IMG/VR virus record: IMGVR_UViG_643348545_000013
Span: 1-57,943 of that record
Source: a virus
Lineage: Duplodnaviria > Heunggongvirae > Uroviricota > Caudoviricetes
DNA: 57,943 bases
Strand: one strand, 5' to 3'
Position numbers: made by a program. This document shows, piece by piece, positions 9,001-12,000 of this stretch (position 1 is the first letter of the stretch; each line of letters starts with the position of its first letter).

Positions 9001-12000
9001 GCATCGTGGTGGCAGAAAAACCACCGGCTGCCAGGGCTGAACCCCATAACGCCATTGATGCCCCGGCCGTGAAGAAAGACCCCACAATGGCAGCTGCCCC
9101 CAGCACAATCTGTAGTCCGCCCTTTCCGGCTCCGGCCAGTCGCGGCACAATATGGATAACCGTTCCCTCACCCAGTGGTTCGTGAAGGCGGGCATACACC
9201 GCCTCCGGTGCCGTATCCTCACCGGCAATGCGTATCTGGTACCAGCCTTCGTTCATCTGACGGCGGAATCCCGGCACCTGCTGCGACAGGGCGCGGATGG
9301 CTTCCGCCGCCGTGTTCACATACAGGCTGAAGCGGCGGCCAAATCGTTGTAAATCCCCGTGAAGGCAGATGTGTGCCAGTGGCGGTGACGCCAGACAGAA
9401 TGCGTTCGTCGTTGCCATTTTTCGGAATACCTCTCCCGTTTACTCAGTTGTTCAGGCAGATGGTGAAGCAGTTCACCGTTGCCGCAGTAAATGGCGGCAT
9501 GATTAGCCACCGATGCGCCGAAGCAGCACAGCAGGATATCGCCCGGCAGTGCAGAGGACAGGGGCACCCGGTAAAAGCCCGTTGCCTCCATATTGTCCAG
9601 GTAAAGGTTCTGACCGTTGCACCACCAGTCATCCTCACGGTGAAAATCCGGCATATCAATGCCTGCCAGATGGTATGCATCCCGGAACAGCGTGTAACAG
9701 TCCGTCACCCCGTGCGCAAAGCGCCGTCCGGTCAGGTGCGGAACGCAGCGGAATTTGTGAATGTCACCCCGGCAGACCAGCCACCAGGGCAGGGCACTTT
9801 TTATCTGCAGTCGCCGGTCTGCCTCACTCAGCCAGGGCAGACCACCGGGATGACTGTGGACCAGCGCCACAATCTCACCCTGCATCTCCGCCCGCAGCCA
9901 GTCTTCCGGGGCAATACGAAAATACGCCTCCGGCGCTGCGGAGATATTCACACAGGGCAGGTACCGCTCGCCCTCCGTCGTGGTTATCACGAAGCCGCAC
10001 GACTCCGCAGGCGCACACCGCCGGGCATGCGCCAATATATTGCTATAGAGCATGAGAACTCCTGATAAAAAACCCAGCCGAAGCTGGGTTTGTTAAGTTG
10101 TCAATTGTCAGTAGCGATGCAGTGAAGGCGGCAACTCTTTGTTCTTAAGCCTTTCCCACGCCAGAAGGTTCGTCGGCCCGTCAGGCTCATAAATATCTAT
10201 ATCCCGCGTGTGATTAATTAAAACGCCCCTCGCCCTCCCGATGGTATACGAGAACTCATAGCCGTAGTCGTGGCATATGCCGGAATAGCCAGACTGAATC
10301 AGTTTTAATGCGGGATACAACTCACGGAACAATGCCTGTGAGCGGTTAGCATAATCCCATAGCCATACAAGGCTGTTTGCTTCTTTTGCGGAAAGCTCGT
10401 TGGTGCTCTTCTCTTGTTTGCCGATTAACTCTCCTTCAAGCGGAACGCGAGCAGCAAGTGACAGAGCTTCGGTAAACTGCTCCTCGCTGATTTCTTTGTA
10501 CGAACATCCAAAATGTGATTTCAGTGACGACCACATGGTGATCATCGCCTTCGCCTGTTTTTCCTTTGGCAGAGACTGACCGCGACTCATGACGAGTTGT
10601 TTAATGGCTTCCTGCTGTTCAGTAGTGATTTTCCCCGGCAACGCCTTTTTAGCTTTCAGTGTATTTCCGTAAGACCCCGTTTTACGAATGGATGGCAAAA
10701 CTTCAGCTGTCACCCATTTGCGGAATTTGTGCGGGACTGAACCTTTATTGACGGCATCGCGGCAACGCAGAACCAATGTATACATACCTGATTCGCTCAC
10801 AATGCTTAAATTCTGCTCACCACCAAGGGTGTAACTTAAAGTTACTCCCTTTTCATCGTCATCAAGTGCAGTAAGCGCCTTGCGTGAGTTAGTCAGATTT
10901 AAAGCATCACAAACATCTTTTGCTACAAACCACGGCTCACCGCACTTGTTGATGACGCGGATTTCACTGTCGCCGAATTTGAAGATGGTGAAATCGTTTT
11001 GTGCCTTTGCTATACTTTTCATGTCAATATTTCCTAATCCGATTTGTTGATACCGAAGCCCTGACTGTTACAGCAGTTGGGGCTTCAACTTTTTAGGCTG
11101 CGAATAAGACGCTGCACTATTTCTGAATTTAAAGACCTGCCCTCCTCCTTAGCCTTTTCCTTCAATTTTTCTTTAATCTCTGGCGGGATACGAATCCCTA
11201 ATGGAGCGATATCTCTAACTTTCATTTCTTTCCCAATTGCTACACCGTGATAACTAAATACTACACCGTGCTTATTTAAAGTCAAAGTTTTTTTGCCTAC
11301 ACTGTGTAGCAATGCTACAGCGTGCAGGAGGAAAAATGAAAGGTGCAAGAGATATCAGTCCCTTGGGAATTAGGATTCCAGACTATTTAAAGAAACGCAT
11401 TCAGCAGGAAGCGGATAAAAACGGCAGATCAATGAACTCAGAGATTGTGCTTATCCTTCAAAAACATGTTGATAATCTTGATGGCCCTCGCTCACTTGAA
11501 GGATTCGCTAACCAAGAAGCTGACAAATTCAAAGAGGCGCTGCTTGAGACGCTAAAGACCATGTATGGTAAGGATGAAAAATAATGCTGCACACAATTCA
11601 TTTCTTATGCCCCGTTAACACTGCCACTGTTGGGCAACTTCAGAACCACTGTCTCACCGCATTATCTCAAGGCGCAACTGAATTAAATATCCATATATCA
11701 AGTCAGGGAGGGGAAACTGCCGCTGGCTTTACTGCGTATAACTTTCTTAAGTCACTCCCTGTTACCGTTAGAACTCACAACATAAGCAATGTTGAATCCA
11801 TAGCTAATATCGTTTTCCTGGCTGGCTCAGAACGTTTCGCAAACCCATTATCAAGATTCCTGTTACATCCTCTATTATGGGTCTTTGCCACCCCAGCCGC
11901 CGACCATGCCAGATTGAGAGAGTACGGGAAATGCCTCGATAACGATCTTGATCGCTTCGTTGAGACGTTCAATATCGACATCGGAACCCATATTAGGTGG

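Follow-up and report, generated by a model that had tools for sequence, protein, structure and literature searches.

How do two different antirepressor-like genes, lying about 31.7 kb apart in one prophage, come to end in almost the same DNA, and does this identity expose the prophage to loss of the genes in between? The question is raised by the IMG/VR virus record IMGVR_UViG_643348545_000013 (Caudoviricetes), which we analysed at its full length of 57,943 nt (hereafter the window). The window is an E. coli lambdoid prophage with an integrase gene at 56657-57943 and a CI repressor gene (helix-turn-helix (HTH) plus S24) at 47165-47812, and two segments of the E. coli ED1a chromosome match it at 100% identity. 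The two genes are gene A (ant, 304 aa; minus strand, 10108-11022), inserted among the tail genes in an immI-like cassette, and gene B (237 aa; minus strand, 41797-42510), an antirepressor-like gene of the nin region. We concluded that their common 3' module is a case of ordinary mosaicism among phages, with no demonstrated path from it to prophage decay, and that recurrent, patchy, bidirectional gene conversion between the tail (immI) and nin loci very probably explains it.

MAFFT alignment, a repeat finder and a base-by-base comparison of the window with itself agreed on two direct copies of a 358-bp repeat, copy A at 10065-10422 and copy B at 41754-42111, with a spacing of 31,689 bp. A preliminary description of the sequence had reported a near-identical direct repeat with a spacing of ~31.7 kb and two mismatches over its first ~330 bp; the self-comparison recovered extended identity between the two positions, and spacing and mismatch count both stood, only the start of copy A having been placed one base early, at 10064. 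The copies differ at 8 of 358 bp (97.8% identity; sites 10159, 10348, 10396, 10397 and 10403-10406), with 2 of these differences in the first 331 bp (99.4% identity), and their longest perfect runs are 188, 94 and 47 bp. The 60 bases on either side of the two copies are alike at random level only. Since the pair is the sole long dispersed repeat found in the window, chance was rejected as its source. Both copies are on the minus strand and comprise the stop-proximal 315 nt (~104 codons) of a gene (10108-10422 in gene A, 41797-42111 in gene B), a 20-nt 3' untranslated region (3'UTR) and an intrinsic terminator, in keeping with the earlier statement that each covers a terminator and the last ~100 codons. 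DNA identity sets in 3-4 codons ahead of the Pfam domain P22_AR_C and extends past the stop codon through the 3'UTR and the hairpin.

Domain annotation, which had been proposed as a check, identified the common module as P22_AR_C (PF10548) in gene A (residues 204-276; 91.2 bits, E 4.5e-26, model positions 1-73) and in gene B (residues 138-209; 85.8 bits, E 2.1e-24, model positions 2-73), and the 95-aa peptide common to both proteins scores 85.4 bits on its own against a Pfam gathering cut-off of 22.4 bits. The N-terminal domains are different: Bro-N (PF02498) at residues 20-110 of gene A and ORF6N (PF10543) at residues 12-108 of gene B, each with 73.3 bits (cut-offs 25.6 and 27.8 bits, respectively). 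As the preliminary description had proposed, the Bro-N and ORF6N proteins thus do share one C-terminal module. The family is named for the C-terminal half of P22 Ant, and membership in it suggests that the module may be the effector, repressor-binding or oligomerisation part of an antirepressor. The products of both genes would be active antirepressors. A sequence search of PDB chains with both proteins gave no matches. An AlphaFold2 model of the module (shallow alignment of 15 sequences; pLDDT 76; three helices) had no significant PDB fold match, and with a best Foldseek E of 2.1 the model is silent on function. A search for homologous proteins with the module returned mostly short partial proteins, so that the architectures seen are anecdotal and do not amount to a census; elsewhere P22_AR_C was joined to KilA-N and ORF6N, and one protein with P22_AR_N only matched part of the module.

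The terminator of copy A (10065-10091, minus strand; AAACCCAGC-TTCG-GCTGGGTTT followed by TTTAT) lies between ant and tail gene K, and that of copy B (41754-41780, minus strand) between gene B and the Rha/KilAC, NinG and Q genes. The hairpin is the same in both copies, CCCAGC-TTCG-GCTGGG followed by T6, i.e., a GC-rich hairpin with a U-tract on the transcribed strand, as in an intrinsic terminator. Folding energies were -15.5 kcal/mol (z -3.3) for copy A and -15.1 kcal/mol (z -3.9) for copy B, better than 198-200 of 200 shuffles. Copy B was detected by the terminator scan, which missed copy A because the bases past the T-run differ. A homologous element is annotated as a terminator in the P22-like phage Emek.

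Whether the two copies reflect one event or continued exchange was examined in other genomes. Tail/nin pairs were taken from complete phage and E. coli records; the IMG/VR loci each come from different, mostly short contigs. The two-locus layout is present in the isolated phage PhiR12_1, in the Stx phages 1717, WGPS6, YYZ-2008, PV728 and EH1904, and in the closed E. coli genomes EC100, NCTC9112 and LZSFT34. An ant-K junction of the gene A kind was found in 461 of 5,426 complete E. coli genomes, only about 9-11 of the 5,426 having a fully window-like module there. Within a genome, identity of the tail module to the nin module was 81.0% (1717 and EH1904), 81.6% (PV728) and 87.4% (WGPS6) at the low end, and 91.1% (YYZ-2008), 97.5% (EC100), 97.8% (window) and 98.6% (PhiR12_1) at the high end. 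Alignments resolved the modules into two haplotypes with ~81% DNA identity, type 2 being the immI type and type 1 the usual type of the nin locus. A dS of 0.70 against a dN of 0.10 (dN/dS 0.14), with 88 of 105 residues identical, indicates purifying selection on both haplotypes, and the two haplotypes are old. The 3' end of Emek ant is 94.4% identical to the tail-locus module of phage 1717 and agrees with it at 56 of 69 diagnostic sites (3'UTR included), compared to 9 sites with the window type.

Scoring of the 69 diagnostic sites in 146 modules of phage and E. coli origin, in which some loci are represented twice by the same contigs, gave more than 20 mosaic patterns. Among tail loci, some are type 2 over their whole length, in some type 1 is confined to the 5' part, others join a type-1 coding part to a type-2 UTR, and others again, the window tail copy among them, are entirely type 1. 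Nin loci carry internal or 5' type-2 patches of various lengths (WGPS6, YYZ-2008 and loci L072, L080-L082, L128 and L133). With more than 20 mosaic patterns and patches in both loci, the data point to recurrent conversion in both directions. The locus-specific flanks are kept while the patches inside the module vary with different breakpoints, the pattern expected of gene conversion, and sub-haplotype markers track between the copies of one genome. At five marker sites within type 1 (gene-sense positions 43, 46, 63, 75 and 179) converted tail copies read GAATC, whereas most nin copies read AGGCT. The tail copy of PhiR12_1 reads AGGCT and agrees with its own nin copy at 5/5 markers; the tail copies of EC100 (GAGCT) and LZSFT34 (AGATC) agree with their own nin copies at 3/5 and 2/5 markers, respectively, and the window nin copy (GAACC) is in the tail-type state at 4/5. 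As partial cases of a reciprocal recombinant (Rha-module-Bro-N), DEC5E, RM10410 and L012 have the linker of gene A, or part of its N-terminal region, in a nin locus. The preliminary description had suggested module shuffling between antirepressor paralogues; exchange was supported, and the mosaics point beyond a single shuffle to conversion that is recurrent and two-way.

A mechanism consistent with these patterns would treat the repeat as a portable 3' cassette made of the P22_AR_C domain, the C-terminal tail, the 3'UTR and the intrinsic terminator. Homologous recombination without crossover (gene conversion) would move patches of either haplotype into the other locus, the exchange being anchored by two invariant sequences: the linker GGCAAACAAGAGAAGAAG, where the domain begins, and the distal terminator. 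The venue could be one genome, co-resident prophages, or a prophage and an infecting phage. Candidate enzymes are RecA of the host and, from the phage, Bet/Exo, NinB and NinG, all of which the window encodes. On this reading, the nin haplotype replaced the immI copy of the window from about 10395, via a nin-type 3'UTR, to the terminator, and the nin copy was in turn partly back-converted, its markers being mostly in the tail state. This accounts for the mere 2 differences in 331 bp between the window copies.

In the ED1a chromosome (CU928162.2), a 6.7-kb segment from L to J with gene A (1671249-1677986; L149/L156) is 100% identical to the window, and the nin segment (2477085-2485798; L141) is about 800 kb away from it. 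The distance makes it probable that ED1a has two prophages whose tail/immI modules are identical, and the second would be a further recombination partner.

Several observations weigh against recurrent conversion as a full account. Duplicate contigs inflate the counts per pattern (the number of distinct patterns is unaffected), and the sub-haplotype argument consists of five sites. Conversion within a genome cannot be separated from exchange between different phages. The repressor of the prophage is of the self-cleaving HTH + S24 type, with no obvious need of an antirepressor. Lastly, 6 of the 11 complete E. coli genomes with a converted gene A have no nin-type copy, which implies that the converted allele also spreads as a unit. 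This last figure, and the near invariance of the converted gene A allele in the 11 genomes (99.3-99.5%), would also fit a single ancestral domain swap or duplication, with the identity reflecting recent common descent and no ongoing exchange. We regard this as improbable in view of more than 20 mosaic patterns with differing breakpoints at both loci, of tail copies within one gene A lineage that carry 0, 2, 3 or 5 nin-type markers, and of the type-2 patches inside nin loci; a simple recent duplication was rejected as the origin on the same mosaic patterns. There is about as little to be expected from the proposal that matching C-terminal modules are required (for co-oligomerisation or for a common repressor) and that selection keeps the copies identical. 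Purifying selection on the module and copies that track each other in several genomes speak for it, but many phages, induced Stx phages included, have copies that are only 81-88% identical and differ at 17/105 residues, and other phages carry one of the two genes only. An assembly artefact, in which the assembler duplicated or collapsed the repeat, was suggested by the many draft contigs that end at or near the module, a sign that the repeat breaks short-read assemblies; its probability is negligible, and we rejected it, because the two-locus layout with different flanks is present in closed genomes and an isolated phage, the copies differ at 8 positions, and the window is identical to two segments of the finished ED1a chromosome.

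The remaining alternative, somewhat less improbable than these and still unlikely, is that the repeats act mainly as a crossover substrate, so that a 31.7-kb deletion of Roi, NinG, Q, lysis, head and most tail genes produces domesticated defective prophages. The copies are in direct orientation, and their perfect runs of 188 and 94 bp exceed by a wide margin the roughly 25-30 bp that Shen and Huang reportedly gave in 1986 as the minimum for RecA/RecBCD recombination. The RecA-mediated deletion proposed earlier is therefore mechanistically plausible, although RecA is not the sole candidate, Bet/Exo, NinB and NinG being phage-encoded. The interval between the repeats holds Roi, NinG, Q, the lysis, terminase and head genes, the tail genes as far as L, together with a porin moron and the regulators of the immI cassette. 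The claim that the repeats flank the whole late region was overstated: tail genes K, I and J and the fibre genes (about 270-10053) lie outside, and the deletion product would keep these together with replication and immunity, which does not make for a clean domestication. A query built from the K flank, the module and the gene B flank was searched against complete E. coli genomes with a match defined as at least 80% query coverage, and it was matched in 0 of 5,426 (best coverage 58%, an intact tail locus), a negative of limited power, since prophages that combine both near-identical copies occur in just three or four of the complete genomes. The reciprocal recombinant (Rha-module-Bro-N) was likewise absent at this coverage. 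Exact-flank patterns in IMG/VR gave 0 deletion and 0 reciprocal junctions, compared to 25 intact tail and 21 intact nin junctions; among GTDB representative genomes the deletion junction was found 0 times, but so was the intact-locus control, and that search had no power. Long contigs with the exact gene B or K protein all had intact neighbours.

The predicted K-module-ORF6N junction was found exactly in two contigs of a metagenome scan, L139 (ERZ506394 NODE-1301; 2,953 nt) and L140 (ERZ507803 NODE-6500; 1,131 nt). Each has a K flank with 100% identity to the window, and the two differ in their ORF6N variant. Both have ~3x coverage, stop 312-327 nt into K and carry modules that are nin-type throughout. 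They are a lead and not proof, and may be chimeric assemblies, since the same contigs would result if a de Bruijn graph path changed from one copy to the other inside the K-proximal 179 bp that the copies have in common. With these two contigs as the only positive cases, the deletion is not demonstrated as a domestication route. A related prophage in E. coli MLI104K2 (2018000-2056500; L091) has frameshifts in cI, O, Q, lysozyme, terminase, K and I, an IS3 insertion and a capsid-to-tail deletion; gene A is present and a P22_AR_C gene at the nin locus is absent. This prophage is decaying by routes other than the repeat.

The cassette of gene A is an insert between tail genes L (minor tail protein; 12177-12929, minus strand; Pfam Phage_tail_L, E 3e-92), the last late gene inside the inter-repeat interval, and K (tail tip assembly; 9316-10053, minus strand; Pfam JAB + NlpC/P60), immediately downstream of copy A and outside the interval. 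Relatives of gene A are annotated as Ant or as P22AR C-terminal domain protein. Directly upstream of gene A is a gene for an Arc-like ribbon-helix-helix (RHH) repressor of 46 aa (11085-11225, minus strand; Pfam Arc, E 5e-13), followed by a divergent gene for an Mnt/Arc-like repressor of 82 aa (11336-11584, plus strand; Pfam Arc, E 6e-8) and a co-oriented ClpP-like protease gene (11584-12120, plus strand; Pfam CLP_protease, E 1.6e-11). A sar antisense RNA (11024-11090, plus strand; Rfam RF00262, 69.4 bits, gathering score 43) abuts the gene A ATG at 11022 and overlaps both the arc-ant spacer and the gene A ribosome-binding site. In the arc/mnt intergenic region (11258-11320), a sigma-70-like promoter (11285-11258, minus strand) is flanked by a palindrome TGTAGCATTGCTACA at about 11305-11319 and two direct CACGGTGTAG repeats at about 11235-11270; palindrome and repeats look like Mnt and Arc operators. 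The immI region of P22 has the order mnt - Pant/Pmnt - arc - sar - ant - terminator and lies upstream of the tailspike gene. Like P22 immI, the window has divergent Arc-like and Mnt-like RHH repressors upstream of ant, a sar RNA over the ant translation start, and an ant gene that ends in P22_AR_C and the same terminator and is located in the late/tail region. On these features gene A is the ant gene of a P22 immI-type unit and would encode its antirepressor. The order of the cassette also matches mnt-arc-ant-terminator-tailspike of phage Emek, whose ant 3' end and terminator are closer in DNA to the type-2 tail-locus module (94% identity) than to the window module (83%). The window departs from P22 in that its Ant has Bro-N in place of P22_AR_N at the N terminus, the mnt-like gene is followed by a ClpP-like gene, the cassette is inserted into the tail operon of a lambda-type siphovirus, between L and K, and the nin-locus haplotype has taken over the 3' module of the cassette.

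Gene B is in a region with the order NinB, Dam, gene B, Rha/KilAC 'Roi', NinG and Q. An isrK-type small RNA (sRNA) with its own terminator (42675-42752, minus strand; Rfam RF01394, 76.3 bits, gathering score 50) lies upstream, and between it and gene B is a C4-type antisense RNA of the P1/P7 immI type (42565-42649, minus strand; Rfam RF01695, 74.4 bits, gathering score 45); the pair (42565-42752) ends 55 nt upstream of the gene B start. A 77-codon GTG open reading frame (ORF) at 42450-42683 overlaps the C4 RNA and the gene B start; no protein family supports this ORF, which may be spurious. Copy B is followed immediately downstream by the gene of the Rha + KilAC(ANT) protein (41000-41728, minus strand; Pfam), annotated as Roi in relatives, and the gene of the late antiterminator Q (39833-40351, minus strand; Pfam Phage_antitermQ, E 8e-25) follows inside the interval, downstream of the copy-B terminator. 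The immI region of P1/P7 is arranged as c4 antisense RNA - icd - ant. In Gifsy-1 the arrangement is isrK - orf45 - anrP (PMC4825925). The window resembles both in having isrK and C4 RNA genes directly upstream of an antirepressor-like gene near Q, and by analogy gene B would be controlled by these RNAs; it differs in that the protein is ORF6N + P22_AR_C and that no clear equivalent of icd or orf45 has been established. By analogy with lambda, the nin-locus terminator, located upstream of Q, should be read through by N-modified polymerase and the tail-locus terminator by Q-modified polymerase; an N-like ORF with an arginine-rich motif is present at about 49420-49692.

From the immI-type context of gene A and the isrK/C4 context of gene B it follows that the two are differently gated genes of antirepressor type with one output module and one terminator in common. 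A further proposal, to which we assign a low probability, is that lambdoid/Stx phages keep two differently gated triggers (a P22-type Arc/Mnt/sar switch at the tail, a P1-type C4/isrK switch at nin), that frequent conversion between the loci couples their common output module, both triggers then having one target, and that the repeat occasionally resolves as a crossover to give 31.7-kb-deleted prophages. If this were true, crossovers would explain the K-module-ORF6N junction hinted at by the two metagenome contigs.

Shuffling of domains among Bro-N/KilA-N-type modules was reportedly described by Iyer et al. in 2002. It is established for the Bro-N, ORF6N, KilA-N, Rha, ANT and P22_AR modules (PMC10111431), as are mosaicism and inter-prophage recombination in lambdoid and Stx prophages, e.g., of O157 Sakai (PMC2669165), and lambdoid mosaicism is textbook knowledge. 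Our data agree with the former in that Bro-N, ORF6N, KilA-N, P22_AR_N, Rha, ANT/KilAC, P22_AR_C and ORF11CD3 occur in many pairings, and with the latter in the sharp homology boundaries at gene or domain borders and in exchange among co-resident lambdoid prophages. Whereas the Bro-network literature treats protein architectures, the exchange in the window is seen in the DNA of two loci of one genome with a terminator as the distal anchor, and its partners are non-allelic (an immI-like moron and the nin region) and not the same module in two phages. What is added is a resolved example, with identification of the loci as P22-immI type and P1/Gifsy isrK-C4 type, together with population evidence of repeated conversion. 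A literature search on gene conversion combined with antirepressor, and on 'PhiR12', found nothing relevant. The pair provides a clean example, at the DNA level, of domain swapping by Bro-network antirepressors, in which a conserved linker and a terminator delimit a domain-sized cassette that is copied both ways between non-allelic loci within a family of phages. For annotation, the members of this pair, which is widespread among Stx and related prophages, can be told apart as an immI-type ant with sar and an isrK/C4-gated nin gene. In practice, the repeat disrupts short-read assembly and can yield chimeric contigs. No new biological question is opened, and the domestication route is unproven.

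Including genes A and B, the window encodes five Bro-network proteins; the other three, all on the minus strand, are a KilA-N + ORF11CD3 protein (30564-31130), an ANT/KilAC protein in the lysis cassette (32848-33543) and the Rha + ANT protein 'Roi' (41000-41728). Between tail genes M and L is a complete OmpC-type porin gene (13072-14235, minus strand; Porin_1, E 1.8e-139), so that the tail operon has two morons; E. coli LZSFT34 has the same insert, under the annotation ompC. No stx genes were found in the window at the position downstream of Q where Stx phages carry stx. In this region are an STnc100 sRNA (38664-38868, minus strand; Rfam, 137.6 bits) and a TerB-family gene (39095-39598, minus strand) between Q and a SASA/DUF6645 gene, where relatives have DUF3927 and PmrD-like ORFs. 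A weak tRNA-like match (39700-39769, minus strand; Rfam, 32.6 bits) was not called by ARAGORN, and a lambda cIII thermoregulator is located at 50589-50647 (plus strand; Rfam, 88.5 bits). The ORF at 21503-22726 (minus strand), which follows the portal ORF, contains four tandem units of 162 nt (54 codons) at 21795-22567 that are 61-96% identical; it has sub-threshold Pfam matches only, and relatives annotate a frameshifted or split portal there. Near the left prophage end, next to the genes for the tail fibres, 832-2022 (minus strand) encodes a 396-aa protein with a YadA-like membrane anchor of the trimeric autotransporter type.

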